Positions 1,896 through 31,423 of a stretch of DNA of 40,000 bases are shown here, in pieces (position 1 is the first letter of the stretch; each line of letters opens with the position of its first letter). The stretch comes from Bacteroidota bacterium. Lineage in GTDB: Bacteria > Bacteroidota > Bacteroidia > B-17B0 > Aurantibacillaceae. Under the pieces are notes generated by a model that saw only the letters and a program-made list of their open reading frames with translations, was not told the origin of the DNA and did no database searches. The stretch lies in NCBI GenBank assembly GCA_052035725.1, contig JBPOHJ010000019.1, forward strand, positions 38,163-78,162, written 5' to 3'. Made by a program: the position numbers and the translations under genes.

Positions 1896-2013
1896 TGGAT
1901 TCGGGTATATTCGGCATTGAATTTATATAACAGCCCAATAAAAAAATCAGACTTTAAGACAAAAGAATGAACAACAGATGTTTATCCAATTATTTAATTA
2001 ATCCAGATGGTCA

Positions 2014-2361: not shown

Positions 2362-2396
2362 GAGGATAAGCTATACAATATCACTTTGAAAATATG

Positions 2397-2422
2397 ATAA
2401 AAATCACTTGACTGCAAGTGAT
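2397..2422 (-). terminator. rho-independent terminator after the 207-aa beta-barrel gene
   Basis: On the minus strand: ATCACTT gcagtc AAGTGAT followed by TTTTTAT, starting 5 nt after the stop at 2427-2429. Confidence 0.55.
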
Positions 2423-2426
2423 ATCT

Positions 2427-3721: not shown

Positions 3722-3724
3722 GTT

Positions 3725-15036: not shown

Positions 15037-15203
15037 AGAGGAACCTTATAATGTAATGCCAATTAGGGGTCTTTCATCTAACCAGGAGGAAGACCGCGGC
15101 GGGCAGGTACTAGTAAACTGTCACCAATTAGAAATTAGTAATTATTTCGTGAGACGCTGAGCAAAACCTGAGTGCTCTGTGGTTAGGTAAATTGGTAAGT
15201 GGT

Positions 15204-15884
15204 TTAGGGCTCAGTTACCGGAGCAACGGGAGCAGGGCTTGCTTTCTTTTTTCCATTGAGCAGAAAGTTAAGGCTTCCTCCAAGGTTAAACTGCCAAAAA
15301 GTAGAGTACCCGGTTAAACCTGCACCTGTGCCGCCGGTGCCTAAGTAAACACCTCCGCCTATGGCTTGTACGGCAGAAATTAACTGACCGTGAATACGAA
15401 TGCTGATATTGTCGGAGGCTTGAAATTTAAGCCCTAACCTAGCTCCCCAACAAAATTTTTCGGTATTCGAATCTTTGGAATTGTCTTTGGTGCTGATGAT
15501 ACCTAAACCGGCATTGAGTGTGCTGAAGCCGCTGATTTTTTCGGTGAATGGTTGGTAACGTGTGCCACCCAAAAGTATGTAGTCGATGCTGATTCTTCCT
15601 GAAGTTTGGTCTTGAACGATGTTGGTACCGCTCACAACCGGGCGAAACAAATAACCATCCGTATCGAGGCGTTGGTAAATGAGTTCAATGGCCACTCTTT
15701 CTCTGAAGGCAAATTCAAAACCGCCGCCCCATTGAAAACCGTCATTTACTTTACCATCGTATCCATCATCGGTTACAACTTTATCGGCAAAAGAATAGCT
15801 TTCAAATGTCAGCAAGGTAATGTCCACTTGCGCATTAAGGTAAGAGAAGGAAACAAGTAAAAAGAGGAGGAAGGCTTTTTTCAT
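15204..15884 (-). CDS. outer-membrane beta-barrel (porin-family-like) protein
   Basis: The ATG at 15882-15884 gives MKKAFLLFLLVSFSYLNAQ. Gly/aromatic-rich strand pattern. The longer track ORF is an N-terminal extension. Confidence 0.65.
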   Translation of the reverse strand: MKKAFLLFLLVSFSYLNAQVDITLLTFESYSFADKVVTDDGYDGKVNDGFQWGGGFEFAFRERVAIELIYQRLDTDGYLFRPVVSGTNIVQDQTSGRISIDYILLGGTRYQPFTEKISGFSTLNAGLGIISTKDNSKDSNTEKFCWGARLGLKFQASDNISIRIHGQLISAVQAIGGGVYLGTGGTGAGLTGYSTFWQFNLGGSLNFLLNGKKKASPAPVAPVTEP

Positions 15885-15993
15885 AAGGTTGGGATTAACA
15901 ACACGAATATAAATCAATAATTTAGAAGTTGAAAAACACACTTCAGATTCCTGGGCCTATTGCTCATGTAATTTTTTGCAGTATTTTCGTACA

Positions 15994-16626: not shown

Positions 16627-16974
16627 ACCTAAGCATTGCCAGTGGCGGTTTAGTGCAGTAACTTACCTTAGGGTAAGAACGGGAGTTTTGTTAACCGGTA
16701 GTTTATACTTCACTGGTTTTTGTGACAGGCCTATTTACCAACTTTATAAGAAAGTATTGGCGTTTTTTTGCTTGATACGCCTTGATGGAGGTATGGGCCA
16801 AAAACCAATGATTGAAGGATTGCCCTCACAAGTTAACCTTATTTGCGCCAGGGACCGCAGCGATAGCTCCCGCGGGCGTATTGCGTAGTGTTTAAGAGCG
16901 AGGAGGCTTTTTGTGATAACAAAAAGACACCGGAGCCTGTAAAACACAGCAAGACGCAGCGGGACTAAAGCGAA

Positions 16975-17100
16975 GGGCCCGACCCTGAATCGCGGCAAAG
17001 GCCCGGTGGGCCTTTGAGCGAGCATGTATGCGGTAGATCCTTCACACATGCTGGCTCAAATGTGCACAGCACATTTGCCCTCTGATTCAGGGGGGCGCCC
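16975..17100. other. 126-nt cloverleaf-like element: three near-perfect hairpins closed by a 9-bp (extendable) stem; candidate structured RNA or palindromic repeat element
   Basis: The closing stem pairs CCCTGAATC (16983-16991) with GATTCAGGG (17084-17092). Hairpin 1 is AAAGGCCC ggt GGGCCTTT (16997-17015). Hairpin 2 is GAGCGAGCATGT...ACATGCTGGCTC (17016-17057, 11 of 12 pairs). Hairpin 3 is AAATGTGC aca GCACATTT (17058-17076). Confidence 0.35.
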
Positions 17101-17149
17101 AAATACTAAAAAATACACTATCAATCTTAACTATTTGGTATATTTAATC

Positions 17150-17773
17150 GTGCTGATAAGGATTAACGAAGAGAACATTCGATTTGAAGACATTCAAACC
17201 ATTACCGCCTGTTTAAAAAATGGCGGGGTAATTATTTATCCAACCGATACCGTTTACGCTTTGGGTTGCGATATTCACAGCATGAAGGCCCTTGAAAAGA
17301 TATGCAAACTCAAAGGCATTAAACTCGATAAAGCCAATTTTTCCTTTGTGTGTTCTGACCTCAGTCATCTGTCAAATTACACACGTGCTATTCCCAACCA
17401 CGTGTTTAGGGTAATGAAGCGGGCCTTACCCGGTCCTTATACCTTTATACTTGAAGCCAACAACGAAGTGCCTAAACTCTTAAAACAAAACAAAAAAACC
17501 GTGGGTATTCGTGTGCCGGATAACCAGATTTGTAAAGCCATAGTTGAAGGGCTTGGTAATCCAATAATTTCAACCTCTTTGCACGACAACAGCGATGATA
17601 TTTTAGAATATTTTTCTGATCCTGAGCTTATTCACAGACAATACGGTGAAACAGTGGATATGGTGATTGACGGAGGATTTGGAAACATTCATCCCTCAAC
17701 AATAATCGACTGCAGTGGAGACGAGATGCTTGTAATACGAGAGGGTATGGGAAGTTTAGATGTGTTGGCCTAA
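17150..17773 (+). CDS. tsaC: L-threonylcarbamoyladenylate synthase (YrdC/Sua5 family, short form)
   Basis: The motif GGVIIYPTDTVYALGCD and the overall length fit YrdC. A GTG start at 17150 gives (M)LIRINEEN..., a typical family N-terminus. The track ORF from 17024 runs through the hairpin region. Confidence 0.8.
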   Translation: MLIRINEENIRFEDIQTITACLKNGGVIIYPTDTVYALGCDIHSMKALEKICKLKGIKLDKANFSFVCSDLSHLSNYTRAIPNHVFRVMKRALPGPYTFILEANNEVPKLLKQNKKTVGIRVPDNQICKAIVEGLGNPIISTSLHDNSDDILEYFSDPELIHRQYGETVDMVIDGGFGNIHPSTIIDCSGDEMLVIREGMGSLDVLA

Positions 17774-17865
17774 ATGCCAAAACGCAGCCGGCATTTTGCA
17801 AAAGGTCTGACACAGATCATTTTTCGCCTGAACATTTAACCTTAACTTTATTAAAATGAGAAATT

Positions 17866-18678
17866 ATGCTGGTTTCAAATAAAACACTGGTGGTAACCGG
17901 AGGCGGAAATGGCATGGGACGGGAATTGGTACTCCTTTTGCTCAAAAAAAACGCCCGGGTTGCAGCTGTCGACATTCGTAAGGAAGCCCTCGAACAAACG
18001 CAGGAACTTGCCGATGAACACAGAAAATCGTTATCGATTCATGTACTCAACATAAGCGATAGGGCGGTGGTTGAACAATTGCCTGAGCAGGTAATTGCTG
18101 CACATGGCAGCATTGACGGGCTCATCAACAACGCGGGCATTATTCAGCCTTTTGTAAAGGTAAAAGACTTACAGTACGATACAATTGATAGGGTGATGCA
18201 GGTCAACTTTAATGGCCTGCTGTATATGACCAAAACCTTTTTGCCGCATTTGCTTAAACGACCTGAGGCGCATATTGTGAACATTTCGAGTATGGGGGGC
18301 TTTTTGCCGGTACCCGGACAAACCATTTACGGTGCTTCTAAAGCAGCGGTAAAATTGTTTACCGAAGGATTGCACTCTGAATTAACCGAAACAACCGTTA
18401 GGGTAAGTATTGTGTTTCCGGGAGCCATTGGTACGCAAATTGCAGAGAATTCGGGTGTTGTTGCCAGTGCCGAAATGCAGGAGATGACCAAATCAAGTAA
18501 CATCAAAATGCTTCCTGCATCTAAAGCGGCTGAACTTATCGTTAGAGGTATGGAAAACAACGCATACCGGGTGCTGGTGGGTTCTGATTCAAAGTTGATG
18601 GATTTGCTTTACCGCTTTAATCCCAAATTTGCGGCAGGGTTCATTTACAAACAAATGAAGGCTTTGCTGCCTAAGTAA
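17866..18678 (+). CDS. SDR family oxidoreductase
   Basis: TGGGNGMGR cofactor motif, NNAG, and catalytic YGASKAA (YxxxK). Confidence 0.85.
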   Translation: MLVSNKTLVVTGGGNGMGRELVLLLLKKNARVAAVDIRKEALEQTQELADEHRKSLSIHVLNISDRAVVEQLPEQVIAAHGSIDGLINNAGIIQPFVKVKDLQYDTIDRVMQVNFNGLLYMTKTFLPHLLKRPEAHIVNISSMGGFLPVPGQTIYGASKAAVKLFTEGLHSELTETTVRVSIVFPGAIGTQIAENSGVVASAEMQEMTKSSNIKMLPASKAAELIVRGMENNAYRVLVGSDSKLMDLLYRFNPKFAAGFIYKQMKALLPK

Positions 18679-18826
18679 GGAATGGTTATGCACTACCATT
18701 TATGGTTGACATTGCCAAAACAGGTAGTTAGTAGAAGTTAGAAAGGCTATACCAAAGAGTATAGTAAACCAATAGTAATTGTGGCTTTAATTTAGCAGGC
18801 AATTACGAATGTAGTTTGCTTGTGGT

Positions 18827-19297
18827 TTAGTTGAGTTTTTTCCAAAAAATAATTTTGTCTTCGCCTTCATTCCAAAAATCCTTGATTCTGGCTTCTTGTC
18901 TGTAACCGAGTTTGAGGTAAAATTGTCGGGTTAAGGCATACTGGTCTAAACTGGAAGTTTCAACAATTAACACTCTATGGCCTTGTTGAGCCAGTAATTT
19001 TTCAATGAAGTTCATCATTTTTCCTCCAATGCCTTGACCTTGTAATTCCTTTCGCACGGCAATTGCATAAAGGTTGTAGGTTCCCTTGGTGAGTTTTTCT
19101 GCTGCACAATAACCGAGTGCAATGGGTTTGGTTTTATATACGCAGGTAAACCAAATGTCTGTAGAATCTTTGTTGCTAATATAGTCAGCCATCATTTCGT
19201 CAAGCAGTTCCGACGGAAAGAGTTCGCTGGAGTCTAGTACTTCCTTTAGTGCCGGTAGATCTTGAAGTTGCACTTTTCTTATTTGTTGATCAGGCAT
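18827..19297 (-). CDS. GNAT family N-acetyltransferase
   Basis: Acetyl-CoA motif RKELQGQGIGGKMM. 156 aa. Confidence 0.8.
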   Translation of the reverse strand: MPDQQIRKVQLQDLPALKEVLDSSELFPSELLDEMMADYISNKDSTDIWFTCVYKTKPIALGYCAAEKLTKGTYNLYAIAVRKELQGQGIGGKMMNFIEKLLAQQGHRVLIVETSSLDQYALTRQFYLKLGYRQEARIKDFWNEGEDKIIFWKKLN

Positions 19298-19303
19298 AGG
19301 TGT

Positions 19304-19606
19304 TTATTTTTTCTTGTTAGAAAATGCTGTGTTTAAGTCGTTTAAAACGGTATGAGGATGGGCATCAATAATGGCAATTGTTGGATTGGTTTTGGGAAAC
19401 TCCTTATGAAATAGTTCCCTGCTTTCCTTGTCAACGCCACCGCCAATGATAACCGCATCAAACGTGTTTGATTGGAAACTGAGCAATGCCTCCTGGTTAG
19501 TGATTTTTCCAATTGCCTTGTAGCCATGTTGCTTGAGAATTTCGGTAATTTTAGCAAGCATGTCTGCATGTCGTCCAATTATTAAAATGTTCTCTCCGTG
19601 TCCCAT
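19304..19606 (-). CDS. hypothetical small protein (flavodoxin-like / receiver-like alternating beta-alpha pattern)
   Basis: 100-aa ORF ending 6 nt upstream of the GNAT gene's start. I see no convincing phospho-acceptor pocket. Confidence 0.5.
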   Translation of the reverse strand: MGHGENILIIGRHADMLAKITEILKQHGYKAIGKITNQEALLSFQSNTFDAVIIGGGVDKESRELFHKEFPKTNPTIAIIDAHPHTVLNDLNTAFSNKKK

Positions 19607-19967
19607 AGTTTAACAGATGTGCCAATTAAACAGCCAAAATTAGGCTACTTAGTGTGGTTAATTTGCTGTTTTGTATTATTGGTTTGCCGTGAAGTTAAAG
19701 ATTTTGAAACAAACGCGCATAACGTTTCTATTCGAAACAGGCCGCCATCATGCATGCACCAAGCTTGTTGAAGTCTCAGCCAAAGGCACTGCTCTATTAA
19801 ACAGGGCTTGCTTGCTGCTAAAGTTCAGCGGATTTTTGAATAGGCTTGTGTGTCAGTAATGTCTCTAGTTCCTTTAGCGTCACTTGGCTGTTGTGGCTCT
19901 TGAGTTTTTTTACAATTTGTTCATCTTGGCAATTTCATTCTTACAAAAATTGCTTGCAATGTTAAGT

Positions 19968-20366
19968 TTATTTGTCTGCTATTGGTGCTTTTTTGTGTCT
20001 GCCCCATGAAACAACCATCGCAATTAAGAGCATCACAATATTAAAGCCTATGTCTTTTACTTCGCCTCTTGAAACATGAAAGATAATTGCAGCAACCATT
20101 AATGCAACTATTCCATAGGCCGAAAATACTGTGAGTTGGGTTTTTATGCGAAGTAAAGTCGGCAACACAATTCCGATTCCGGCTAATAAGTCAACAATAC
20201 CTGTCAACAAAACAAGATTGGCGTTGTCTTTTACCCAAGGGTAGGGTAAGTCTGTTGGTTTAACTAATTTCATAGTGCCGGCCCAAACAAAAGTTACAGC
20301 TAAAAGTCCCTGGGCAATCCAAAGCAGTAAGTTTAGTGTCTTTGATGTTTTTTGTTCTGTTGTCAT
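19968..20366 (-). CDS. DoxX family membrane protein
   Basis: 132 aa with four TM segments. The N-terminal LLLWIAQGLLAVTFVWAGTMKL is typical of DoxX-like proteins. Confidence 0.7.
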   Translation of the reverse strand: MTTEQKTSKTLNLLLWIAQGLLAVTFVWAGTMKLVKPTDLPYPWVKDNANLVLLTGIVDLLAGIGIVLPTLLRIKTQLTVFSAYGIVALMVAAIIFHVSRGEVKDIGFNIVMLLIAMVVSWGRHKKAPIADK

Positions 20367-20434
20367 AAATTTAGTGGTGTTGTTTGATTTTAGTTAGGCT
20401 GTTTTACAATAACTGCTCTTAGTGGCTGGTATGC

Positions 20435-20911
20435 TTATTTTGTTTTTATTGGTATCCAAATTTCTTCTTCAGATGTTGGGTCGTTGTTTTTGTAGTTGTC
20501 TCCCAACACTTCAAAATGCGGTCTGTCGTCTAAAGTGTAATGCGATGATGGTAACCAAGTACCAAAAATATATTCAAAAATTGCATTGTCCGTGTTCAAA
20601 CCCTTGTAGTCAAAAACGGCATAAAGCCCGCCTTCTAACACAAATGTTTCCAATTCGCTAGGTACAATGTCAAAGTTGGCAACTTCCACAGCAGCCCATC
20701 TTACAAATTCATTTGTCAACTTGAAGTCCTCAAAATGATGAGGTTTGTATACAACCAGTGAAATTAGGTCCTTGGTCAAGTTATTGGTGATTTCCTTTCG
20801 TCTTGGAGAAAAACTCTGCCAAAGTTCGCCAATTTTGTAGTCTGCTAAACTCATGGTGAGTTGTTTGCCTATTAATTGTTTTTTGTTTAGTTTTTCAATT
20901 TTAGGGATCAT
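20435..20911 (-). CDS. GyrI-like small-molecule-binding domain protein
   Basis: 158 aa. Pattern ...LIGKQLTMSL...WQSF...HFEVLGDNY...EEEIWIPIK, typical of GyrI-like / AraC effector-binding domains. Confidence 0.7.
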   Translation of the reverse strand: MIPKIEKLNKKQLIGKQLTMSLADYKIGELWQSFSPRRKEITNNLTKDLISLVVYKPHHFEDFKLTNEFVRWAAVEVANFDIVPSELETFVLEGGLYAVFDYKGLNTDNAIFEYIFGTWLPSSHYTLDDRPHFEVLGDNYKNNDPTSEEEIWIPIKTK

Positions 20912-20971
20912 TATTCTAATAACAAGTCTATAGGATCATCCTTTTTTTCTGCATTATTAATATGGTCGTAT

Positions 20972-21041
20972 TGCAGCCGTGCTCTGGTCGCATTTTCAAA
21001 TGTACGAATGTCCTCTTAAATTACAACGCCCAAATGCGCTG
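20972..21041. repeat. conserved downstream element, copy after the 360-aa gene
   Basis: It is colinear with 26284-26345. Read on the minus strand, both carry CG.ATTT..G..TTGTAA.TT...G..ACATTCGTAC, then 17-25 nt, then GGCTGCA. Confidence 0.45.
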
Positions 21042-21074
21042 CATAAGGCATATTTGCTGTTATTTGCAGTTTGA

Positions 21075-22157
21075 CTATTTGTTCCGTCTGACAAATAATA
21101 GCGCATTCAGGGAAAGACTAAATACTAGTACTAAATAAATCGAGATTGTCTTAAAGTCCAAAAGGCTGGTTGAGTTCGTAGTACTTTTATTTGCTGTGAC
21201 AATTTGTTTCAGGTAATAGTTCTCTAAAGTGTCATACCGGGAAAAAACTCTATTAAGGAAAGGAACAAAAAGTGCCTTGGTCGAGTATTCGGAAAGTCCG
21301 AAAGTAATGTATAAGGTAACTGTGGCATTTGTGTCAATTGAGTCTGTTGTCAAGCATTTATATTCAATTGGGCCTATATTCTTAAAACCTTGGATGATAA
21401 ATGGGCCCTTGAATTCTGAGGTCCATTTTTTGTAATAGAAAGTGCTGTCATTTACAAAGGCCAAATAGTCAGCGTAGTTCAGATTAATAATATGAATTAA
21501 GTCTGAAAAGATATGTACAACTGTGTCTCCGTGTAAAATATGAAATTTATCGTTTTCATAGAAGTATGTCGGATAAGGTGGTGAATTGTATATTTCAATT
21601 TGATCTTGCCTTGTTTTAATGAGTGAATTTACCAACGTGTCATTGGTTTTTGCGATTGACAAAATTGTGTAATAAGGGATGCTGTAACATGATGTGTTTT
21701 TGCTTAGAGTTGGGAGTGTTCTAAGAGTTTGATGTTTTTTTATGGTTGCGGTATTATTGATGGCCCATTGAATTAGATTTAATGCTTGAGCAATGGAAAA
21801 ACTGCGGTCTCTAATAACAATTACAATTCCTGAATCAAGGTTCCAGTGCTTGGAGTCCTTTTTTTCTGTTGAATACGAAAATTCGTTGTAGCCAAGGGTA
21901 AAGGATGTTGAATCTGTTGATGTGTAGTATTTTTCATAATCAAGAAAAACTTTTACTCGTGTATTGAAATTTCGCTTGAGCAACTTATCGGCAAAAACTG
22001 CTAAAATTTCAATTTTTTGCGCCAAAGCTTGATTCGTTCCCGAACTTGTGTACCGAACAATAAGCCTGTCTTTATGGATAAACTTGACGACGTCCATATT
22101 TCCATAACAAATCTGTAATGAAAATAGGAATAGAAGTATTTTAATTAGTCTGGTCAA
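21075..22157 (-). CDS. hypothetical protein with a signal peptide and a C-terminal TM anchor
   Basis: 360-aa ORF. Only a TTG (22155-22157) preserves the signal-like N-terminus MTRLIKILLFLFSLQICYG. The C-terminal hydrophobic helix is followed by RRNK. Confidence 0.55.
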   Translation of the reverse strand: MTRLIKILLFLFSLQICYGNMDVVKFIHKDRLIVRYTSSGTNQALAQKIEILAVFADKLLKRNFNTRVKVFLDYEKYYTSTDSTSFTLGYNEFSYSTEKKDSKHWNLDSGIVIVIRDRSFSIAQALNLIQWAINNTATIKKHQTLRTLPTLSKNTSCYSIPYYTILSIAKTNDTLVNSLIKTRQDQIEIYNSPPYPTYFYENDKFHILHGDTVVHIFSDLIHIINLNYADYLAFVNDSTFYYKKWTSEFKGPFIIQGFKNIGPIEYKCLTTDSIDTNATVTLYITFGLSEYSTKALFVPFLNRVFSRYDTLENYYLKQIVTANKSTTNSTSLLDFKTISIYLVLVFSLSLNALLFVRRNK

Positions 22158-22205
22158 ATTGCCATTAACTTTTGTCCAACTAGCACAGCCGAATTACGGA
22201 AACTA

Positions 22206-22236
22206 GCCGGATTTAAAGATAAAAAATTTGTCAGGA
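22206..22236. repeat. copy 1 of a 31-nt intergenic repeat (core TTAAAGATAAAAAATTTGTCA)
   Basis: The 21-nt core at 22213-22233 is identical to 25160-25180. The flanks match as CCgGAT-/CCtGATg and gGA/aGA. Confidence 0.75.
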
Positions 22237-22431
22237 CGCTAAAATAGTCGATGTATCGCCGCAAGGCAAAAGTTCAATGGACGTTTGAGCCAGCTGTTGG
22301 AAAGACCTTGCCATGAATGAACTGCTGCTATTCACACTAGCCTTAGGAGTTGCTGTCTCTTGTCACGGTATCACCATTTGACTATTGTTATGTCCTTGTC
22401 GTAACTTAACTGGCCACTCAGGTAAGTGCCG

Positions 22432-22860
22432 TTAATTGCATACGAATTTATTAAGCAGATAAATTATCAGGATGATGAACAAGCTTAGCACTAAAACGGT
22501 GTTAATTAACAGATCGTAATGTTTTTGGGGGATATGGTGCTTGGGATAAATAACTGTCCATTTACCCGAATTGGCGAAGTCAAGCAACATTTTTGGGGTT
22601 ACCGGAATTCTTTTTACCCGGTCGTATGGTGGTGTGAATAATGCGGCGCCTAAACTTTGGCCTTCTTCGTTTGAGTGAAAATACCAAAGATAAGAGCTCA
22701 TGTCAACTTTAAACTTGATTTGGTACTTTTCTATCATCTCATGAAAGTCGTCACCCCAAACATTTTGGTCTTTAAAAATATCGGTTTGTAAATTGATTAT
22801 TTCTCTTCCAAGAAGGTCATTCAGGAAGGTTAGGATATTTTCTTCAGAATATTGGTTCAT
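22432..22860 (-). CDS. DUF1493-like protein with a C-terminal TM anchor
   Basis: The ATG at 22858-22860 gives MNQYSEENIL... The segments KYQIKFKVDMSSYLWYF and RIPVTPKMLLDFANSGKW match my memory of DUF1493 (ACP-like fold). The track start at 22899 is TTG. Confidence 0.5.
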   Translation of the reverse strand: MNQYSEENILTFLNDLLGREIINLQTDIFKDQNVWGDDFHEMIEKYQIKFKVDMSSYLWYFHSNEEGQSLGAALFTPPYDRVKRIPVTPKMLLDFANSGKWTVIYPKHHIPQKHYDLLINTVLVLSLFIILIIYLLNKFVCN

Positions 22861-23009
22861 GTTGAATCTGCCTTTGGTATTACTTTTTAAAGTTGGCAAG
22901 TAAGTGAACTTGATGAATTCAATAATAAAAGCTATATAGTATCACCATATTTGACACGAAATATAAACCTTCAAATAGGGATTTGACCATCAAATTCTTA
23001 GTGTAACAT

Positions 23010-23687
23010 TTAGGTGTTTTTTATTTCTTTCTCATCCTGTATTTCAATTAGCCGGGGTTCGACGGTATTGTAGTCTTTAATAACTTTTATAGTGATTAGG
23101 GCCAGTGGTATTCCTATTACGTTACCAATCATGCTAACAACAGTACTTAATGTTAATTCCTCAATGGTTTCAGCTTTCATTGAGTAGCGAAAAATAAATT
23201 GGCTAATTACATTGTTTATTATCCAAAGAGTCCACCACCAACCTAATGAAGCTGTCGTAAATTTTTCAGTTACATCCAATCCTTTTTTTATCAGAATATC
23301 TTTAGTTTCCTCGTATAATTCCTTCATTATCTGATAGGGTCGATACAAACAAACTATGGGAACAAACCAACTTCCTGCTGCCCAACCTTCAGTTAGCGAT
23401 AAATGATCTACTCGTAGGTGAAGATTGTAGTAGGCTCTTCTAAACCATTGAATGAAGGTTACGATAGAAATACAATACACTATAAGAGAAATGATTGCGA
23501 TGATTTGTTCTCTGGTGTCATTCGCTTCAGCAATTTCTAATGAAACACCTCCACCATTTGCCGCAGTCTTAAGTAAATCATATTGGAAATATTTAGATAC
23601 CAATGAAACGATTTCCAATACCAATCCTATCCATAATAGTGTTATTGCATTTTTTGCTCTTTGGTCATTGGGTTTTAAAGTTTCCAT
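23010..23687 (-). CDS. DUF4328 domain membrane protein
   Basis: Multi-TM protein with GWAAGSWFVPIVCLYRPYQIMKELY, the characteristic DUF4328 core as I recall it. Confidence 0.6.
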   Translation of the reverse strand: METLKPNDQRAKNAITLLWIGLVLEIVSLVSKYFQYDLLKTAANGGGVSLEIAEANDTREQIIAIISLIVYCISIVTFIQWFRRAYYNLHLRVDHLSLTEGWAAGSWFVPIVCLYRPYQIMKELYEETKDILIKKGLDVTEKFTTASLGWWWTLWIINNVISQFIFRYSMKAETIEELTLSTVVSMIGNVIGIPLALITIKVIKDYNTVEPRLIEIQDEKEIKNT

Positions 23688-23906
23688 TATATTGCTTTTT
23701 TATAATTAAGTAAGTGTGTTATTATTCAACTTTACAGGAGTCATTGCATAAATTCAGTACAAACCTTAAATGTGTCCACCGTGAAGATAAAGTTTTTGAA
23801 GCAAACAAGCCAGAAATGACTGCCCGGGAGAATAACCTTCTATTTAGCCGCCGCATACAAGATTTAATCTGGCTGGTTCCAAACCGCTGTTAGGTGTAGT
23901 AATCAT

Positions 23907-24440
23907 TCAATCAACTTTGGTGCTTTTCCATTTTGTTCCAACTTTTCGATACCAGTACTTTTCGCCTTCAAATTCATAATAGTATGAACCGATAGTATTA
24001 TTATACTTTCTAGTAAAGTCCAAATACTCTGACACATATCTAGAATGAAATTCACATTGATGATATACAATGAAATTAACAGGGAGCCCGTTTTTGTGAG
24101 TTGCAATTACGTCTGGGATGGAATCTTTATCAGTGTGCCAAACGAAGGTTCCATCCAAAACACGAGGATTTCCTTTTGCTGAAGTTCTATTAATGAAAGA
24201 GTGACGGTAATTTTTATTCCTCTTGTCTTTTCTAAAAATTAATACAGGTGTACCATTGTCATAGTATTCGTAACCGAAGAAATAAGATGAAGAGCTGTCC
24301 GTTGGATTTAGATCTGCGTCGAGATATTTGATCCAGTAACCAGTCTTTTTTCCTTTACTGTTTAATTGATTAATTGTGTCATGCTGTCCGTAGAATGCTA
24401 AAGTCAAGATGTTTAATAAGGAAATAACTAATATTCTCAT
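23907..24440 (-). CDS. secreted hypothetical protein, MORN-variant/YwqK-like repeats (weak)
   Basis: Signal peptide MRILVISLLNILTLAFYGQ. The motifs GKKTGYWIKY, YYDNGTPV and HKNGLPV resemble YwqK-type repeats. Confidence 0.5.
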   Translation of the reverse strand: MRILVISLLNILTLAFYGQHDTINQLNSKGKKTGYWIKYLDADLNPTDSSSSYFFGYEYYDNGTPVLIFRKDKRNKNYRHSFINRTSAKGNPRVLDGTFVWHTDKDSIPDVIATHKNGLPVNFIVYHQCEFHSRYVSEYLDFTRKYNNTIGSYYYEFEGEKYWYRKVGTKWKSTKVD

Positions 24441-24483
24441 AATTACTACAAGCGGCTATTATGGGTTGGACGTAATACCGTAT

Positions 24484-25074
24484 TTATTCTTTTCTTAACC
24501 AACCAAGTAGTCTTTCGTTGTCCAATGTCCATAAGCTATCTGAGTTTATTAAACTGATTAATTCTCTCGATTTACCAAAAGGTCCAGGATTTTGCTGAAT
24601 AATTTCAATTTCATTATCAGTAACGTTAGAAACAATTGCGACGTGTCCATACTTATTAAAGATCGAACCTTTAAAAACAACTAAATCATCGATTCGTGGT
24701 TTTGTATGACTGCCATTTTTGAATTGAACCAAGTTACGTTTTTTGTTTATCGTCCCATCTGTAAGCTCCTCATCAAAAAAATCTTTCGCGTTGCCAAAAG
24801 CGTCGGGCATTTTGTGATTTAAATGTTCGTAATAGTAACGCTTAACAAATTCAACACATTGATATTTGATTCCGATATTATAATTGTCTGCAGAAGTGTT
24901 ACGTCCAGAAGAATTGTCAACGCCGCCATTATAATAAACTATAACATTGTTTAAGCTATCAATGTGCTGCCCGACTTTGTAATTAAAATTAAAATTTACT
25001 TTTTTACCTAGTTTGTATATGGCGAAGGCCGCTAAACAAAATACCAGGAGAATTATTACTCGACTTTTTTTCAT
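24484..25074 (-). CDS. CHAP domain amidase/peptidase with an N-terminal membrane anchor
   Basis: The ATG at 25072-25074 gives MKKSRVIILLVFCLAAFAIY. The catalytic Cys context is YQCVEFVKRYY. The His context is YGHVAIVSNV, with E/N downstream. The track start at 25152 is a TTG extension. Confidence 0.7.
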   Translation of the reverse strand: MKKSRVIILLVFCLAAFAIYKLGKKVNFNFNYKVGQHIDSLNNVIVYYNGGVDNSSGRNTSADNYNIGIKYQCVEFVKRYYYEHLNHKMPDAFGNAKDFFDEELTDGTINKKRNLVQFKNGSHTKPRIDDLVVFKGSIFNKYGHVAIVSNVTDNEIEIIQQNPGPFGKSRELISLINSDSLWTLDNERLLGWLRKE

Positions 25075-25120
25075 TAATGATTTTGGGATATCAATCCAAC
25101 GGATTACCAATAAACTTCGT

Positions 25121-25132
25121 TCAATTGGCGCC
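25121..25132. repeat. left arm of a 12-bp perfect inverted repeat (TCAATTGGCGCC)
   Basis: Its exact reverse complement is at 25271-25282. Confidence 0.8.
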
Positions 25133-25152
25133 GATAATATAAGGGTAGCCAA

Positions 25153-25183
25153 CCTGATGTTAAAGATAAAAAATTTGTCAAGA
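25153..25183. repeat. copy 2 of the 31-nt intergenic repeat
   Basis: See copy 1. This copy lies upstream of the CHAP gene, inside the inverted-repeat-bracketed segment. Confidence 0.75.
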
Positions 25184-25270
25184 TCTTAAAGAGATAAATC
25201 AGTCGCGTCACTAAAACTTAACTGCCCAAAAACGACAGCTGCTTTGAAGGAATCTGACACTCTTCCAGGT

Positions 25271-25282
25271 GGCGCCAATTGA
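25271..25282. repeat. right arm of the 12-bp perfect inverted repeat (GGCGCCAATTGA)
   Basis: Exact reverse complement of 25121-25132. The two arms bracket 162 bp in total. Confidence 0.8.
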
Positions 25283-25301
25283 CTCTTAGCGACTAGTTGC
25301 A

Positions 25302-26171
25302 TCAGTTTTTAATAAGCAGTCTATTCTTAATTCGATTGTCAGATTTGCATCTTAGAACATAGGCACCAGATGGCAACATTGAAATATCAATCACGCTATC
25401 AGTTTGTTTCCAATCTCTGACTTCAAGTACGCATTCACCAATACAATTTATAAATTCTATATTCGTTGGAACCCAATTGTCGACCGAAATTGATATGCTA
25501 TTATTGGAAGGGTTGGGGAAAATAGTAAAATGTTGGGAGAGCAAATCATTTGAGCTGACACCGACTGGCAGTGAGCAGCTTAAACTGCTTTGGGCATTGG
25601 AATAAATAGCAGTCGCTGAATTATTATTTACTAAACAAATGAGGTTTCTTGTTGTATTAAATGTATTGCATAAAGGAAAGAGAAGCGCAAATGTAGATCC
25701 AACACCTTCAATTATTTTGCCGGGGCCGTTACCCCCAAAATTAAACCTTTTATGATAGATTCCGTCGTTAAGAAGTACACTGTCTTTGTAAGTCAATGTG
25801 GCGGTTATTACTCCGGTTACACAAAAGAGTTGGGCGGTATCTCCTACATTTTTGTCAAAATTATAAAGTATTTTTTCCTGATTATTGACTAAAATAATAA
25901 CTCTTTTAAGAATTGTGTCTTGTCTGAGTAAAATTGGATAAAACATTTGAAGGCAGGATGAACCATCCGCAGATAAAAGATTGTAATTAATACCATTTAC
26001 AATAGAGTCCTTTTCGACCCTTAATTGATAAATTGAGGGACCACTTGTGCTAGGAATAGTTTGACAATACTCATACCAGTAATGATTGTTGTCAAGTGGC
26101 ATTTTAATGTACTGAGCATGAAGTGATGTTATACTCAACAACAATGTCAACCAAAGTAGTATTTTATTCAT
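25302..26171 (-). CDS. T9SS type A sorting-domain protein; N-terminal domain unknown
   Basis: Signal peptide MNKILLWLTLLLSITSLHAQ. The C-terminal ~80 aa (FTIFPNPSNNSISISV...IDISMLPSGAYVLRCKS...LLIKN) fit the Por/T9SS C-terminal domain. Confidence 0.7.
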   Translation of the reverse strand: MNKILLWLTLLLSITSLHAQYIKMPLDNNHYWYEYCQTIPSTSGPSIYQLRVEKDSIVNGINYNLLSADGSSCLQMFYPILLRQDTILKRVIILVNNQEKILYNFDKNVGDTAQLFCVTGVITATLTYKDSVLLNDGIYHKRFNFGGNGPGKIIEGVGSTFALLFPLCNTFNTTRNLICLVNNNSATAIYSNAQSSLSCSLPVGVSSNDLLSQHFTIFPNPSNNSISISVDNWVPTNIEFINCIGECVLEVRDWKQTDSVIDISMLPSGAYVLRCKSDNRIKNRLLIKN

Positions 26172-26283
26172 GGTGTAATAATTAAATTGTAATATAAGTT
26201 AAGACGTCTTTAAGAACCAAAGGTTACATATGTTGTCATATAAATCTGTCTCTTTCTGCTTTATGTTTGGCAGTTACAAGTTG

Positions 26284-26345
26284 TGCAGCCTTCTTCGTTA
26301 TTAAAGTACGAATGTAGGCCCGAATTTACAATACTGAAATACGAC
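26284..26345. repeat. conserved downstream element, copy after the 166-aa gene
   Basis: See 20972-21041. It shares an exact 10-mer (GTACGAATGT on the plus strand) plus colinear flanking matches. Confidence 0.45.
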
Positions 26346-26373
26346 GTTTAACTTTTAGTGACGTTAGGCACAG

Positions 26374-26874
26374 TTAATTAAATATTTTATTAAAAATATC
26401 CTTAAGTTCTTGCATGTCCTTCTCGGACTTTTTGGAAAACCGACCAATACCAATAGTATTATTTGTCATTGTATTCACTTGGTCGCCCTTTATTAAATCA
26501 TAATTAACCAAGTTTTTCTTATCGATAGTAAATATCTTGAAGAAAAAATAGTCATCACCTTTTTCAATAGAGGTCATTTTAAAGTCAATGTCTCGAAACG
26601 CAACAGATCTAATTTCTTTGTCATTAGAAGGGTCTGAATATCCATTTTCCACAATTTTTATTCGTTCAATAATTAAAGAGTCTTTAGTTGTATTTGTCTT
26701 AACGAAATAATTTGTTCTATTAAATTTCAACTTTGCCCCTTGAAAAGGCGGAAAATCTGAAGACTCTATTTTTGTCTTGAAAGCATAAAACACACTGTCA
26801 TTGAGTTGTTGTCCAAATGAGATGGCAAAAAACATCAAAATTATAGTCGTAAAAAAGAGTTTTCTATCTGTCAT
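26374..26874 (-). CDS. hypothetical secreted protein
   Basis: 166-aa ORF. N-terminal hydrophobic signal (LFFTTIILMFFAISFGQ). No motif recognised. Confidence 0.55.
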   Translation of the reverse strand: MTDRKLFFTTIILMFFAISFGQQLNDSVFYAFKTKIESSDFPPFQGAKLKFNRTNYFVKTNTTKDSLIIERIKIVENGYSDPSNDKEIRSVAFRDIDFKMTSIEKGDDYFFFKIFTIDKKNLVNYDLIKGDQVNTMTNNTIGIGRFSKKSEKDMQELKDIFNKIFN

Positions 26875-27013
26875 GGTATATTTATTAATAGTGCCTAATT
26901 AGGTTATAGAGCTGATTTAATCACGCCAATCTTATTTTTGCATGGTTTATGGTGATTTTTACTCACTTTTAAATAAACTCAAAACACCTCAGAAATTCTT
27001 CCAAATCCTCAAA

Positions 27014-27442
27014 TCACGATTTACTATTATCTGCAAACCAATTAATGGCCATCTCATAACCCTTCAAACCAAAACCCGAAATGCTTCCCTGGCAATGCCT
27101 GCCCAAATACGATACGTGCCTAAAATCTTCCCTGGCAAATATGTTGCTGATGTGTACCTCTATGGTTGGGATTTGAATGGCCGCCACCGCGTCGGCAATG
27201 GCAATACTGGTATGGGTATACGCTCCGGCGTTTAAAACAATACCATCCATGGTTTTTCCGGCTTCCTGAATTTTGTTAATGAGCTCACCCTCAACATTGC
27301 TCTGGTAATACTGCAAGTTGTGCTGAGGGAATTGGTTTTGTAGCTTTTCAAAATAGCTGGCAAAGCTCAGTTTTCCATAAATGTCCGTTTCGCGTGTGCC
27401 CAGCAAATTTAAATTGGGCCCGTTGATAACAATTAACTTCAT
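27014..27442 (-). CDS. aroQ: type II 3-dehydroquinate dehydratase
   Basis: MKLIVINGPNLNLLGTRETDIYG and the VHISNIFARE motif. 142 aa. Confidence 0.92.
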   Translation of the reverse strand: MKLIVINGPNLNLLGTRETDIYGKLSFASYFEKLQNQFPQHNLQYYQSNVEGELINKIQEAGKTMDGIVLNAGAYTHTSIAIADAVAAIQIPTIEVHISNIFAREDFRHVSYLGRHCQGSISGFGLKGYEMAINWFADNSKS

Positions 27443-27481
27443 GCCATGAATTTACACTATTTACACGATACATTTGAACCC

Positions 27482-28390
27482 ATGTCGAATTGGAAGGTGT
27501 TCGAAAACCGGTTTAAACAGTATTTGCTGCTCGAGCGATCACTCTCTGAAAACAGTCGCGAAGCTTACCTTAACGATATTGCCAAACTCAGAACCTATAG
27601 TGAGTTGTTTCTGAACAATAAAAGCGCCGACACCATTCACAACAAAGACCTTCAGGCATTCAGCGCCTGGATTGCCGAAATGGGCTTCACGCCCTCTACT
27701 CAGGCCAGGGTACTTTCGGGGGTAAAGGCTTTCTACAAGTACCTCTTACTCGAAGATGTGGTAAAAGCCAATCCCGCCGAACTGCTGGAAAGTCCTAAAC
27801 TGAGCCGCAAACTCCCGGTTTTTTTAAGTATACACGAAATCGAACATTTGCTGGGACTAATCGACCGCAGCACCCCCGAAGGGGAACGCAATTTAAGTAT
27901 GCTCGAAACACTTTACAGTTGCGGACTTCGGGTAAGTGAATTGGTGAATCTTAAACTCAGTGATCTGCACCTCGAAGAAGATTATATCAAAGTGTTGGGT
28001 AAAGGTAATAAGGAGCGCCTGGTGCCTATGGGCAAGATTGCCAAACGTTTACTCACTAACTACATTCACAAGGTGCGCTCTCATATGACAGTGAATAAGG
28101 AAGCAGAAGATATTGTATACCTCAATAAAAGAGGCGGGCAACTTAGCAGAGTGATGGTATTTTACATCATCAAAGACCTTGCTAAAAAGGCCGGCGTAAA
28201 AAAAAGGCTGAGTCCGCATACATTTCGCCACTCCTTTGCCACCCATTTGGTAGAAGGCGGGGCCGATTTGCGCGCAGTACAGGAAATGCTGGGTCACGAA
28301 AGCATTACCACCACCGAAATATACACCCACCTCGATCGCCAATACCTGCGCGACAATATTTTAAGTTACCACCCCCGAAACAAAAAATAA
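27482..28390 (+). CDS. xerD: site-specific tyrosine recombinase XerD
   Basis: Catalytic residues are in context: GLRVSEL (R), HTFRHSFATH (H-x-x-R), LGHESITTTEIYTH (H, Y). The N-terminal core-binding motif is YLLLERSLSENSREAY. The ATG at 27482 is preferred over 27446, which lies 3 nt from the aroQ start. Confidence 0.85.
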   Translation: MSNWKVFENRFKQYLLLERSLSENSREAYLNDIAKLRTYSELFLNNKSADTIHNKDLQAFSAWIAEMGFTPSTQARVLSGVKAFYKYLLLEDVVKANPAELLESPKLSRKLPVFLSIHEIEHLLGLIDRSTPEGERNLSMLETLYSCGLRVSELVNLKLSDLHLEEDYIKVLGKGNKERLVPMGKIAKRLLTNYIHKVRSHMTVNKEAEDIVYLNKRGGQLSRVMVFYIIKDLAKKAGVKKRLSPHTFRHSFATHLVEGGADLRAVQEMLGHESITTTEIYTHLDRQYLRDNILSYHPRNKK

Positions 28391-28409
28391 GTACATTTGT
28401 TTCAGGCCT

Positions 28410-29651
28410 ATGAAATCCTTTCAAATTCCTGAATTTTACCGCAGCCCACTTATTGCTAAAATTAAACAACTCCGGCGTTTGCAAGATCCCCGTAAAAAGG
28501 ATGTGAGTCCCGGTATTTTGGATTTTGGCCCTGTGCAGTTTCTGCTGGCCCGGCATTTTGGCTTTTGTTATGGGGTAGAGAACGCTGTTGAAATCGCTTT
28601 TAAAGCGGTGGAAGAAAACCCGGGCAAACGTATTTTTTTACTCAGCGAAATGATTCACAATCCCGAAGTGAACAAAGATTTGCGGGAACGAGGAGTAGAT
28701 TTTTTGCACGATACCCTGGGTAAGGAGTTAATTTCACTGGATACACTTAAGCCGGATGATGTGGTAATGATTCCAGCCTTCGGCGCTCCCCTGGGTTTGA
28801 TTGAAACCCTTGAGAAAAAAGGCATCCCCACCGAAAAGTACAATACCACCTGCCCCTTTGTGGAACGGGTTTGGAAAAAGTCGGAGCAAATTGGCAAACA
28901 AGATTACACCATACTTATACATGGTAAAGTCAATCACGAAGAAACCCGATCTACCTTTTCTCGTTCAGAGCGTGATAGTAAAGCTGTGCTGGTGCTTCGT
29001 GATATGGAAGAAGCCATAAAACTAGGGAAATACATTAGCGGAGACTACACCCAGGAGCAATTCGAACTTGAATTTGAAGGCAAATTCACCAAAGGCTTTT
29101 CCATTCATGAGCATTTAAAGAGAGTAGGGGTGATTAACCAAACCACCATGCTGGCAACCGAAACACAGGCCATTGCTGATTATTTCAGACAGCTGATGAA
29201 AGCGAAATACCCTGGCGATGACAGCCAGGCCCATTTTGCCGATACCCGCGACACTTTGTGTTACGCCACCAACGAAAATCAGGATGCGACCTATGGTTTA
29301 TTGGAAGCTGAGGCTCATCTGGCTTTGGTGGTTGGGGGATACAACAGCAGCAACACCTCCCATTTGGTAGAATTGCTAGAAGCCAAATTCCCAACGTATT
29401 TTATTTCTTCGCATAAGGAATTGCTAAGTAAAGACACCATTCGCCACTTTATTTATGCTAAAAAACAACTGAAAGAAACCCGGCAGTTTTTACCTGAAGC
29501 CCAACCCCTAAAAATTATCCTTACCTCGGGGGCTTCCTGCCCTGATTCTGAACTTGAACAAGTGATCAACAAAGTGATATCCTTTTTTCCAACGTCCAAA
29601 ACTACTGAAGAGGTTATTGGTGAATTAAAATTAGCAGCGAATGAAAATTAA
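28410..29651 (+). CDS. ispH: 4-hydroxy-3-methylbut-2-enyl diphosphate reductase, long form
   Basis: FGFCYGVENA, TTCPFVERVW, HGKVNHEETR, INQTTM, TLCYATNENQDA and VVGGYNSSNTSHL. The three cluster Cys contexts are present. Confidence 0.9.
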   Translation: MKSFQIPEFYRSPLIAKIKQLRRLQDPRKKDVSPGILDFGPVQFLLARHFGFCYGVENAVEIAFKAVEENPGKRIFLLSEMIHNPEVNKDLRERGVDFLHDTLGKELISLDTLKPDDVVMIPAFGAPLGLIETLEKKGIPTEKYNTTCPFVERVWKKSEQIGKQDYTILIHGKVNHEETRSTFSRSERDSKAVLVLRDMEEAIKLGKYISGDYTQEQFELEFEGKFTKGFSIHEHLKRVGVINQTTMLATETQAIADYFRQLMKAKYPGDDSQAHFADTRDTLCYATNENQDATYGLLEAEAHLALVVGGYNSSNTSHLVELLEAKFPTYFISSHKELLSKDTIRHFIYAKKQLKETRQFLPEAQPLKIILTSGASCPDSELEQVINKVISFFPTSKTTEEVIGELKLAANEN

Positions 29652-30444
29652 CCTCAACAAACCTCTGGTGTTTCTCGATCTCGAAACAACGGGCTTAAGT
29701 GTGGGCAGCGACCGTATAGTAGAGATTTCCTTATTAAAGGTAGCCACCGATAATTCAACCGAAACACTCACTAAACAGGTTAACCCCGAAATGCCTATTC
29801 CTGCTGCTGTTTCAGCTATTCATGGCATTTTTGATAAGGATGTAGCCACCGAACCAAATTTTAAAGAACTTGCTCCGCAATTGGTGAAATTTATTGGCAA
29901 TGCCGATTTTGCCGGGTTTAATTCGAATAAATTCGACATTCCCATCTTGTTGGAAGAGTTTTTAAGGGCAGAAATTGAATTTGACATAGATGGCCGAAAA
30001 CTCATAGATGTACAAAACATTTTTCATTTGATGGAACCGCGTAACCTGAGAGCGGCGTATAAATTTTATTGTTCTAAAACCCTTGAGAATGCGCACAGCG
30101 CCGAAGCTGATGTGAAAGCCACCTATGAAATATTTCTGGCGCAGCTTGAGCGTTACGAAGGACTCAAAGTAACAGATGAAAAGGGAAATGTAACCGAACC
30201 GGTGGTGAACAATATTCAAAAACTATCTGAACTCAGTGCCAAATCACGCAATGTTGACCTGGCCGGCCGTATTGTTTTTAATGAGGCAGGTATTCCGGTG
30301 TTTTCCTTTGGTAAACACAAAGACAAAGCGGTAGTAGAGGTGTTTACCAAAGAACCTTCTTATTACAACTGGATGATGCAAGGGGATTTTCCATTGTATA
30401 CCAAACGTGTCATCACCAAACTCAGGCTGGGCATGAAGCAGTAA
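29641..30444 (+). CDS. DEDDh 3'-5' exonuclease (DnaQ / DNA polymerase III epsilon-like)
   Basis: Exo I is FLDLETTG. Exo II is GFNSNKFDIPIL. Exo III is HSAEADVKAT. The start overlaps the ispH end by 11 nt. Confidence 0.8.
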   Translation: MKINLNKPLVFLDLETTGLSVGSDRIVEISLLKVATDNSTETLTKQVNPEMPIPAAVSAIHGIFDKDVATEPNFKELAPQLVKFIGNADFAGFNSNKFDIPILLEEFLRAEIEFDIDGRKLIDVQNIFHLMEPRNLRAAYKFYCSKTLENAHSAEADVKATYEIFLAQLERYEGLKVTDEKGNVTEPVVNNIQKLSELSAKSRNVDLAGRIVFNEAGIPVFSFGKHKDKAVVEVFTKEPSYYNWMMQGDFPLYTKRVITKLRLGMKQ

Positions 30445-30521
30445 TTGGGATGGGATGGCTTGGTTCAAAAGCGCTGATCTAAACGACTTCTAAACAGTGT
30501 TAATTTGAATGGAAAGAAGCA

Positions 30522-31340: not shown

Positions 31341-31373
31341 TTGTTTGTGGCTAGAGGAAATAAAGTTAAGCCC

Positions 31374-31408
31374 AAAAAAAAAGCTGCCCGAATTGGAGCA
31401 GCTTTTTT
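31374..31408 (-). terminator. rho-independent terminator after the large T9SS cargo gene
   Basis: AAGCTGC ccgaattgga GCAGCTT, flanked by an A-run (31374-31382) and a T-run (31403-31408). It lies 16 nt after the stop at 31424-31426. Confidence 0.75.
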
Positions 31409-31423
31409 ATCAAGAGTCTGGTG

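Follow-up and report, generated by a model that had tools for sequence, protein, structure and literature searches.

The subject of this work is a block of 11 small genes in a 40,000-nt stretch of DNA from a Bacteroidota genome (assembly GCA_052035725.1, contig JBPOHJ010000019.1, positions 38,163 to 78,162; hereafter the window), where it lies between the genes for a Sua5/TsaC-family protein and the dehydroquinate dehydratase AroQ. Our results indicate that the block is probably a fossil cassette array of the integron style, based on recombination sites of an attC-like type present in other Bacteroidota, and that these sites have since eroded. The gene for a membrane-anchored CHAP amidase keeps borders shared with arrays elsewhere, the best remnants of such sites in the window are located at the ends of block genes, and the whole interval is an insertion, in which the block deviates in composition from the rest of the window. 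The window as such is Bacteroidota chromosomal DNA, with type IX secretion system (T9SS) sorting domains and the divergent aroQ/xerD pair.

Cassette borders and relics of recombination sites

The CHAP protein has more than 4500 homologs, up to 77% identical to it, in a family whose members measure about 195 aa. In one comparator locus (L166) its gene stands in a strictly co-directional run of 15 small, mostly unannotated genes, and in another (L168) it lies with four orphans in a segment with a G+C content (GC) of 0.30-0.39, in a genome of about 0.52; it is also found in a tRNA-adjacent integrase island (L171/L172) and in an ordinary chromosomal context (L169). The L168 array (positions 1-4000) starts 170 nt past the stop of a tyrosine-recombinase gene of the same direction that is truncated at the contig edge; the remaining 37-aa C-terminus, padded with RHSFAT as a query, matched only generic short fragments from many phyla. 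L171/L172 was considered as a recombinase-led array and rejected, being an integrase island devoid of the repeat described below except at the borders of CHAP itself.

The spacers of L166 and L168 contain a structured repeat of 70-210 nt, in which a left end (...YTAACA, with an invariant TAACA just past each stop), covarying arms and an A/T-rich variable centre, often with a TATCTTTA box, are followed by a right end (AAACGTTAKNGGCAAT, in which AACGTTA..GGCAA is invariant and lies immediately ahead of the next start codon). In the proposed structure of this repeat 78.5% of the cells are paired, vs 29-44% for slid partners, and compensatory changes are present in 14 of 21 pairs, a level of covariation reached by none of 500 shuffles. 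The ends pair with each other in 7/8 elements and the bottom strand folds more stably in all eight, so that the repeat shows the pattern of attC sites, with paired covarying ends and bottom-strand bias. In its architecture the element family is attC-like. Two called genes of L166 (3767-3940 and 7635-7835; 57 and 66 aa, GC 0.44-0.47) are translations of the intergenic repeat and are mutually similar. Upstream of the first gene of that array, at 235-304 (+), there is a sub-threshold match to the DUF805 RNA motif RF03081 (39.6 bits, gathering threshold 51.1, E=8e-4).

A covariance model built from the L166/L168 repeats (R1) detected more than 10 elements in these two loci (best E=5.7e-10), two in L019, and 37 in eight phage-like IMG/VR contigs (L173, L175 and L177-L182) retrieved with a 17-mer; a second model (R2) was built from 37 elements. 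In the chromosomes the repeat is in sense to the cassettes, in one case downstream of a co-directional XerD-like recombinase. In the early regions of the phage contigs, small early genes and multiple DNA methyltransferases are set apart by these elements, which are antisense to the genes, an orientation that is unusual for attC. The family is also present in Polaribacter phage P12002L (L183), at 30005-30059 and 30896-30965, and the published 'attC1' of this phage (30005-30059) is a short member of it, read on the plus strand. The published study (PMC9892861) appears to have assigned that site to the opposite strand.

When the 5' flanks of the CHAP genes of the window, L166, L168 and L171 are aligned, conservation starts at GTTAT.GGTAA.CCGTTGGA, approximately 45 nt before the ATG, and none is seen upstream. 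The conserved block thus starts at the GTT core, the point at which integron cassettes are cut. The start codon is the ATG at 25074; the ORF (open reading frame) called mechanically from the TTG at 25152 adds 26 codons of this conserved border. On the 3' side conservation runs past the stop through CCAACCTATAAC and is cut in the window after about 35 nt by the next gene. Given its place in the arrays and these aligned flanks, the CHAP gene is a widely travelling cassette.

Other traces of the repeat in the window were found with a left-arm hidden Markov model (HMM) built from L166 and L168 and run over the whole window on both strands (80 kb). Its top three matches are all on the minus strand, 4-12 nt past stops of block genes (Table 1), a placement with p of about 1e-7, or 3e-5 if matches are restricted to non-coding DNA. 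Likewise, the top two matches to a centre and right-end profile adjoin the 360-aa and CHAP genes at their starts, each lying shortly downstream of one copy of a repeated module (A), and the motif YTAA[CG] occurs within 30 nt past the stop of 7/11 block genes vs 4/29 elsewhere (Fisher p=0.004, binomial p=1e-4).

The preliminary description of this DNA had reported sequence modules shared among the block spacers, and two pairs indeed exceed chance, each with 0/100 shuffles and with no further copy in the window. The two copies of module A, at 22213 and 25160, match exactly over 21 nt; their homology reaches about 60 nt downstream and passes into about 130 nt of weaker similarity, and the TATCTTTA box of the module is likewise central in the L166/L168 elements. 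Module B is a 28-nt repeat with 89% identity at 19687 and 23779, whose first copy is preceded at 19715-19728 by the right-end-like GAAACGTTATGCGC, the best right-arm HMM match (E=1.1). Both modules may drive transcription of sub-operons. No repeat family spans all the block spacers, and the motif CAGTTAAGTT is at chance level. A 9-mer, ACATTCGTA, occurs at 18804, 21003 and 26307 on the minus strand and at 17972 on the plus strand (4 copies vs 0.22 expected, 0/100 shuffles), three of them in block spacers on the coding strand, for a motif picked after it had been seen. The spacer between the DUF1493 and 360-aa genes (22158-22431) is 274 nt long with a GC of 0.434 vs about 0.35 in the flanking genes, and outside module A and the right-end relic it gave no ORF, Rfam match or fold signal.

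Insertion, composition and constraint

In four relatives (L002, L003, L007 and L086) Sua5 and aroQ converge directly on each other, separated by 10-190 bp, and on the other side the xerD-ispH-exo(-murQ) synteny is kept in relatives. The aroQ gene is beside xerD in 62 of 162 loci, and no homolog of any of the 11 block genes was found within 10 kb in these 62. Both observations indicate that the 9.2 kb between the two anchors is an insertion. The interval is a lineage-specific accessory insertion in a convergent intergenic gap; an accessory island had been proposed in the preliminary description. Like horizontally acquired islands in general it is missing from relatives at a conserved junction and deviant in composition. 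The gene of a short-chain dehydrogenase/reductase (SDR; 17866-18678) belongs to the inserted interval, is on the strand opposite to the block and is not located between Sua5 and aroQ in relatives.

Every block gene is on the minus strand, the 11 ORFs of 100-360 aa spanning 18827-26874. All-against-all BLASTP among their products gave E>1 for every pair, and each of the seven proteins encoded at 21075-26874 has a signal-like N-terminal segment or a transmembrane (TM) segment; the only Pfam matches among these seven are DUF1493, DUF4328, CHAP and a T9SS sorting tail. The earlier account of short, co-directional and mutually dissimilar genes with mostly exported or anchored products was therefore accurate, and so were its seven hand GC counts (within 0.3 points). 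The shift in composition is significant: GC is 0.356 in the block vs 0.429 in the remaining window (0.383 at 18827-21074 and 0.345 at 21075-26903; 0.29-0.40 per gene), and GC at third codon positions (GC3) is 0.344 ± 0.043 for the 11 block genes vs 0.448 ± 0.036 for 30 other ORFs (Mann-Whitney p=5e-6). The block is compositionally foreign. Two identifications of the earlier account have to be revised, since the CHAP protein, with its thousands of homologs, is not one of seven orphans (the 166-aa product, hyp166, is still called one) and the 'YwqK-type' label given to the 177-aa protein received no Pfam support even at E<=10.

Scans anchored on XerD, which covered GTDB species genomes and JGI metagenomes, returned no relative with more than 73% XerD identity except a near-identical strain, and exact-protein matches for strain variants came only from short contigs of the same or the sister strain. 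The sister strain (Logan contigs) is 99.29% identical over the core region 27078-32848 and 98.61% over 25122-26846, with the hyp166 and T9SS genes in the same order; the variation of gene content between strains that the preliminary description had proposed as a check was not seen there. The core shows 36 synonymous and 4 nonsynonymous differences (ratio of nonsynonymous to synonymous rates, dN/dS, 0.03). The 289-aa T9SS gene has 7 nonsynonymous and 3 synonymous differences and hyp166 has 3 and 2, giving 10 and 5 when pooled (dN/dS 0.52; Fisher p=7e-5 vs the core). Given 0.52 vs 0.03, the two island genes that could be compared evolve almost neutrally, under relaxed constraint.

Searches for recombinases and intact sites

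The neighbouring XerD passes the TIGR02225 equivalog model with 335.2 bits (cut-off 329.6) and fails both integron-integrase models, TIGR02249 (147 bits, cut-off 265) and NF011946 (94, cut-off 435). On these grounds, together with its conserved synteny, xerD encodes an ordinary housekeeping chromosome-dimer resolvase with no special role, and is not a dedicated array recombinase, in agreement with its first impression as a housekeeping gene. The earlier remark that no dedicated integrase is visible also stands: no other recombinase, transposase or phage gene was found in the 40-kb window, and no integron integrase (IntI) gene adjoins the block as in a complete integron.

A strict attC heuristic (RYYYAAC...GTTRRRY, <=150 nt, terminal pairing) gave 0 candidates in the block; it proved too strict for the long Bacteroidota elements, and covariance models were used instead. 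These yielded nothing below E=0.2 in the window, the best R1 match in the block being 22156-22228(-) with E=0.88 and the best R2 match in the window 22906-22997(-) with E=0.23, in the spacer here called S6. Folded as single-stranded DNA on both strands, no block spacer beats its dinucleotide shuffles (|z|<1.9) or shows bottom-strand bias. The at least two attC sites expected of an integron, or of a cluster of attC sites lacking integron-integrases (CALIN), which are imperfect inverted repeats bearing R''/R' cores and folding into single-stranded hairpins, were thus found in the window by neither the heuristic nor folding, R1 or R2, and nhmmer with single L166/L168 spacers gave no match in it at E<=1. 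Three spacers, of 6, 43 and 68 nt, leave no room for a recombination site. The aroQ-hyp166 spacer (26875-27013) has no recognisable feature of an attI site or cassette promoter (Pc), for which no Bacteroidota attI model or consensus exists.

The other signs of mobile elements that were looked for are equally absent. No block spacer matches any of three dif consensus sequences within 6 mismatches, the three weak palindromes of the block all being within coding sequence, and no site of the 11-6-11 form of dif and plasmid dif (pdif) was seen in any spacer or at either boundary. The window has no tRNA or tmRNA gene and no Rfam family at gathering or permissive thresholds, and the boundaries have no direct repeats, so that nothing of an integrase- and tRNA-associated genomic island was found.

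Features of the region

Table 1. Coordinates of the genes, relics and repeated modules of the inserted interval and its flanks (positions of the window; MFE, minimum free energy)
Feature	Position	Strand	Remarks
Whole inserted interval	17774..27013		9240 bp, between 3' ends of Sua5/TsaC and aroQ
Sua5/YrdC/TsaC-family gene, left anchor	17150..17773	+	PF01300, 7e-49; start ~17150 inferred from homolog alignment
Short-chain dehydrogenase (SDR)	17866..18678	+	adh_short 3e-53; host-like GC 0.453
GNAT acetyltransferase, 156 aa	18827..19297	-	PF13508/PF00583; GC3 0.376
100-aa protein without family	19304..19606	-	6 nt upstream of GNAT
DoxX_2 membrane protein, 132 aa	19968..20366	-	PF13564, 1e-15; four hydrophobic segments
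GyrI-like/Cass2 small-molecule-binding protein, 158 aa	20435..20911	-	PF14526 6e-22, PF06445 5e-21
360-aa exported protein	21075..22157	-	C-terminal TM; TTG start; rare family
DUF1493 protein, 155 aa	22432..22899	-	PF07377, 2.5e-6; C-terminal TM at 130-148
DUF4328 multi-TM protein, 225 aa	23010..23687	-	PF14219, 5e-36
177-aa exported protein, no assigned family	23907..24440	-	no Pfam match at E<=10
Membrane-anchored CHAP amidase, 196 aa	24484..25074	-	PF05257, 1e-14
289-aa secreted protein with T9SS C-terminal sorting domain	25302..26171	-	PF18962, 4e-10
166-aa exported orphan (hyp166)	26374..26874	-	most AT-rich gene, GC 0.293
aroQ (type II 3-dehydroquinate dehydratase), right anchor	27014..27442	-	PF01220, 1e-55
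xerD	27446..28390	+	divergent from aroQ; TIGR02225 equivalog
Relic right end of attC-like element, the conserved 5' border of the CHAP cassette	25101..25130	-	GTTTATTGGTAATCCGTTGGA; second-best centre+right profile match
Relic left arm past CHAP stop	24449..24472	-	CCAACCCATAAT; third-best left-arm HMM match
Relic left arm, 7 nt past 177-aa gene stop	23879..23900	-	ACACCTAACAGCGG; best left-arm HMM match, E=0.02
Relic left arm, 4 nt past 360-aa gene stop	21047..21071	-	GCAAATAACAGCAAAT; second-best left-arm HMM match, E=0.54
Relic right end abutting TTG start of 360-aa gene	22157..22184	-	ACAAAAGTTAATGGCAAT; best centre+right profile match
Spacer S6, residual end-to-end hairpin	22900..23009	-	18 pairs, CTAAG...GTTCAC ends; z=-1.85, not significant
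Spacer S3, residual 12-bp inverted repeat flanking module A	25075..25301	-	TCAATTGGCGCC / GGCGCCAATTGA; arms pair in MFE fold, z=-1.4, not significant
Module A copy 1	22213..22243	-	TGACAAATTTTTTATCTTTAA; contains TATCTTTA centre box
Module A copy 2	25160..25190	-	
Module B copy 1	19687..19714	-	GTTTGTTTCAAAATCTTTAACTTCACGG
Module B copy 2	23779..23806	-	

The 100-aa gene and the GNAT gene are probably co-transcribed, given their 6-nt gap. The 360-aa protein has 40 representative clusters among 1.84 billion proteins, with 49% identity to its best non-self match; a public version of 340 aa begins at an internal ATG, but with homologs aligning from about residue 5 onward both the TTG start at 22157 and the signal peptide are supported. 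For DUF1493 and DUF4328 the literature gave nothing informative. The 177-aa protein has just five homologs (65-37% identity), all in differing neighbourhoods with no CHAP gene alongside, and its AlphaFold model, made from 5 sequences, is too poor for a fold search, with a pLDDT (predicted local distance difference test) of 44.5. The closest solved structures to the CHAP protein are Gsp/trypanothione amidases, its nearest relatives at the sequence level being glutathionylspermidine/trypanothione amidase domains. On the left flank, Sua5 is 72-75% identical to relatives from 17132/17150 on.

Two regions further to the left deserve mention. An orphan gene for a 245-aa protein (15204-15941, minus strand) is followed after 16 nt by a 113-nt inverted repeat (15076-15188) with attC-like ends (ACCTAAC ... 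GGTTAGAT) that pair in the MFE fold; neither R1 nor R2 detected it at E<10, and it may be either a solitary relic of a cassette site or a hairpin formed by chance. About 524 nt of non-coding sequence that separate a lipoprotein-like ORF from Sua5 (16627-17150, plus strand, GC 0.46-0.51) fold on the plus strand with a free energy of -191 vs -153 ± 7 kcal/mol for shuffles (z=-5.4, 0/100 shuffles), with no Rfam match at E<=1. It is overlapped by spurious ORFs, namely 16744-17049 (-) and an N-terminal extension of the Sua5 ORF, and may be an unannotated structured RNA.

Origin of the block

The history that best fits these results would begin with an array of the type found in other Bacteroidota chromosomes and phages, from which at least part of the block would descend. 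In an ancestor of these strains an array, or a piece of one, would have become fixed between Sua5 and aroQ, all eleven genes, beyond CHAP and its neighbours, having presumably arrived as cassettes. The recombination sites would then have eroded to fragments, the genes remaining co-directional and low in GC, and the recombinase partner would have been lost; since none is present, the array should no longer be mobile. The preliminary description had seen the block as cassette-array-like and as a place where cassettes are collected. Cassette ancestry is upheld by the CHAP borders and the arm relics; a working array is not, since the heuristic, folding and two covariance models all failed to find an intact attC-like site.

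Several observations weigh against a cassette origin of the block. Apart from the CHAP borders, the relics are individually weak (E 0.02-8), and the argument from them is one of position, not of score; moreover, inspection of the data preceded the definition of the YTAA[CG] motif and of some of the windows. The four genes at 18.8-21 kb, intermediate in GC and nearly devoid of relics, may form a stratum of their own or have a separate origin. The comparator elements themselves raise doubts, because those of the phage contigs are antisense to genes and because attC1 of P12002L, the one published member of the family, was also the one site that failed recombination with IntI1 in the study concerned (PMC9892861). 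As for the expression of the block, a sigma-70 scan of it remained at shuffle level, and the canonical Bacteroidota promoter TTTG-N17-23-TAnnTTTG was not found upstream of any block gene, which weakens the model of module-driven transcription.

It is also against a fossil array, and in favor of an ordinary islet built by piecemeal horizontal transfer and illegitimate recombination in a gap between convergent terminators permissive for insertion, that R1, R2 and the single-sequence nhmmer searches were all negative in the window and that CHAP is the sole gene common to the window and the collected arrays. On that explanation only CHAP, with its own flanks, would come from a cassette system, the other relics being chance matches or generic features of AT-rich gene ends, as their E-values would allow; the two strata in composition hint at more than a single acquisition, and the homologs of the 177-aa gene sit singly amid housekeeping genes. 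Still, we consider such an islet, the main alternative, unlikely, because it leaves unexplained why the three best left-arm matches of 80 kb fall within 12 nt past block stops on the coding strand, why the two best right-end matches abut block starts and why YTAA[CG] is enriched past block stops, and because random insertions made independently would not be expected to leave 11 genes all in one direction.

That the array is still active, either CALIN-like or of the recombinase-associated type discussed below, and served in trans by a recombinase encoded elsewhere in the genome or by the adjacent XerD through sites too divergent for our models, is improbable. The geometry is admittedly integron-like, with a recombinase gene divergent from co-directional genes, the two ends of spacer S3 and those of S6 still pair, CALINs commonly have no nearby integrase (PMC4889954), and low GC with repetitive spacers recalls the recombinase-associated arrays. 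Yet no spacer is more stable than its shuffles or biased to the bottom strand, three spacers cannot hold a site, dif/pdif-like sites are missing, XerD is a housekeeping protein whose aroQ-xerD-ispH synteny is kept in 62 loci with no arrays, the sister strain has the same gene order, and the compared island genes are nearly neutral.

The preliminary description had also suggested an interbacterial effector/immunity island, to be checked by HMM searches, in which orphan immunity genes would accompany a CHAP amidase toxin. Most of the products are small, exported or membrane-anchored, the exported 177-aa protein is encoded 43 nt after the CHAP amidase and the architecture recalls orphan-immunity arrays, but no toxin, immunity or defence family was found in Pfam (E<=0.1; E<=10 for orphans), NCBIfam, PADLOC or PHROGs. 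The CHAP protein is nearest to amidase domains of the glutathionylspermidine/trypanothione group and its family also occurs in ordinary chromosomal contexts, none of the three other contexts of 177-aa family members includes the CHAP/177-aa pairing, and no usable structure model of the 177-aa protein was obtained, all of which makes this function hard to credit. Finally, a native, vertically inherited operon for envelope proteins, low in GC on account of function or expression level, might be suggested by the several envelope products and by the presence of the same segment in the sister strain, but it is already contradicted by the synteny data, as well as by the normal GC of the other secreted and T9SS genes in the window and by the relaxed constraint, and is barely tenable.

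Relation to known systems

Integrons and CALINs have already been documented in Bacteroidota and phages (PMC8618304, PMC4889954, PMC9892861), and a CALIN or sedentary integron array is a close parallel in several respects: the block has co-directional, small, unrelated, mostly unannotated and low-GC genes with no nearby integrase, its CHAP gene keeps cassette borders from the GTT core, and the comparator arrays L166, L168 and L019 have YTAAC ... GTTA ends, covarying arms and bottom-strand bias. Unlike a CALIN, the window has no intact site and several of its spacers are too short for one, and the comparator element is longer than a typical attC, with an asymmetric spacer (1 nt left, 5 nt right) and often a centre box.

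The recombinase-associated acquired interbacterial defence arrays (rAID-1) of gut Bacteroidales are defined by a XerD-like recombinase that lies 5' of the array in the same direction and shares at least 44% identity with BF9343_RS08045, by at least two co-directional downstream genes with GC <=41%, by repetitive intergenic sequences and by a cargo consisting mainly of immunity-family genes (Ross et al., bioRxiv 10.1101/471110). The window resembles them in phylum, in its small co-directional genes below that GC limit (11 genes, 0.29-0.40) and in a nearby recombinase of the XerD family. Its spacers may recall their integron-like repetitive ones, with two significant module pairs and arm relics but no repeat family common to all. 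It departs from them in that xerD is divergent, a housekeeping equivalog, and separated from the array by aroQ, in that no gene was assigned to an immunity family, and in that its repeats are mere fragments. L168 comes nearer, with the C-terminus of a 5' co-directional recombinase ahead of a low-GC array, outside the gut Bacteroidales. Phage CALINs such as that of P12002L (PMC9892861) share the comparator element family between small early genes and DNA methyltransferases, but their elements are antisense, whereas the window is chromosomal and has neither phage genes nor intact elements. With the integrative mobile elements exploiting Xer (IMEX) and the pdif modules of Acinetobacter the window has in common a XerD gene beside a mosaic of small accessory genes, unlike them with no dif/pdif-like 11-6-11 site.

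These comparisons clarify the nature of the window, in which an apparently active array beside a recombinase is better seen as a fossil with a housekeeping neighbour, and they suggest that cassettes of the integron style can be retained as fixed accessory genes of ordinary appearance once their sites erode, which is likely the fate of many CALIN-like regions. The comparator element family in turn links Bacteroidota chromosomal arrays, the rAID-like layout and phage methyltransferase regions. It is conceivable, and we propose it tentatively, that the comparator repeat marks a Bacteroidota-specific cassette system apart from classical integrons, served by a non-IntI recombinase and common to chromosomes and phages, of which the window would be a decayed remnant. 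If so, rAID-like arrays would extend well beyond gut Bacteroidales and beyond immunity cargo, and a dedicated recombinase for the element family, if found, would broaden the range of cassette-capture systems in the phylum.

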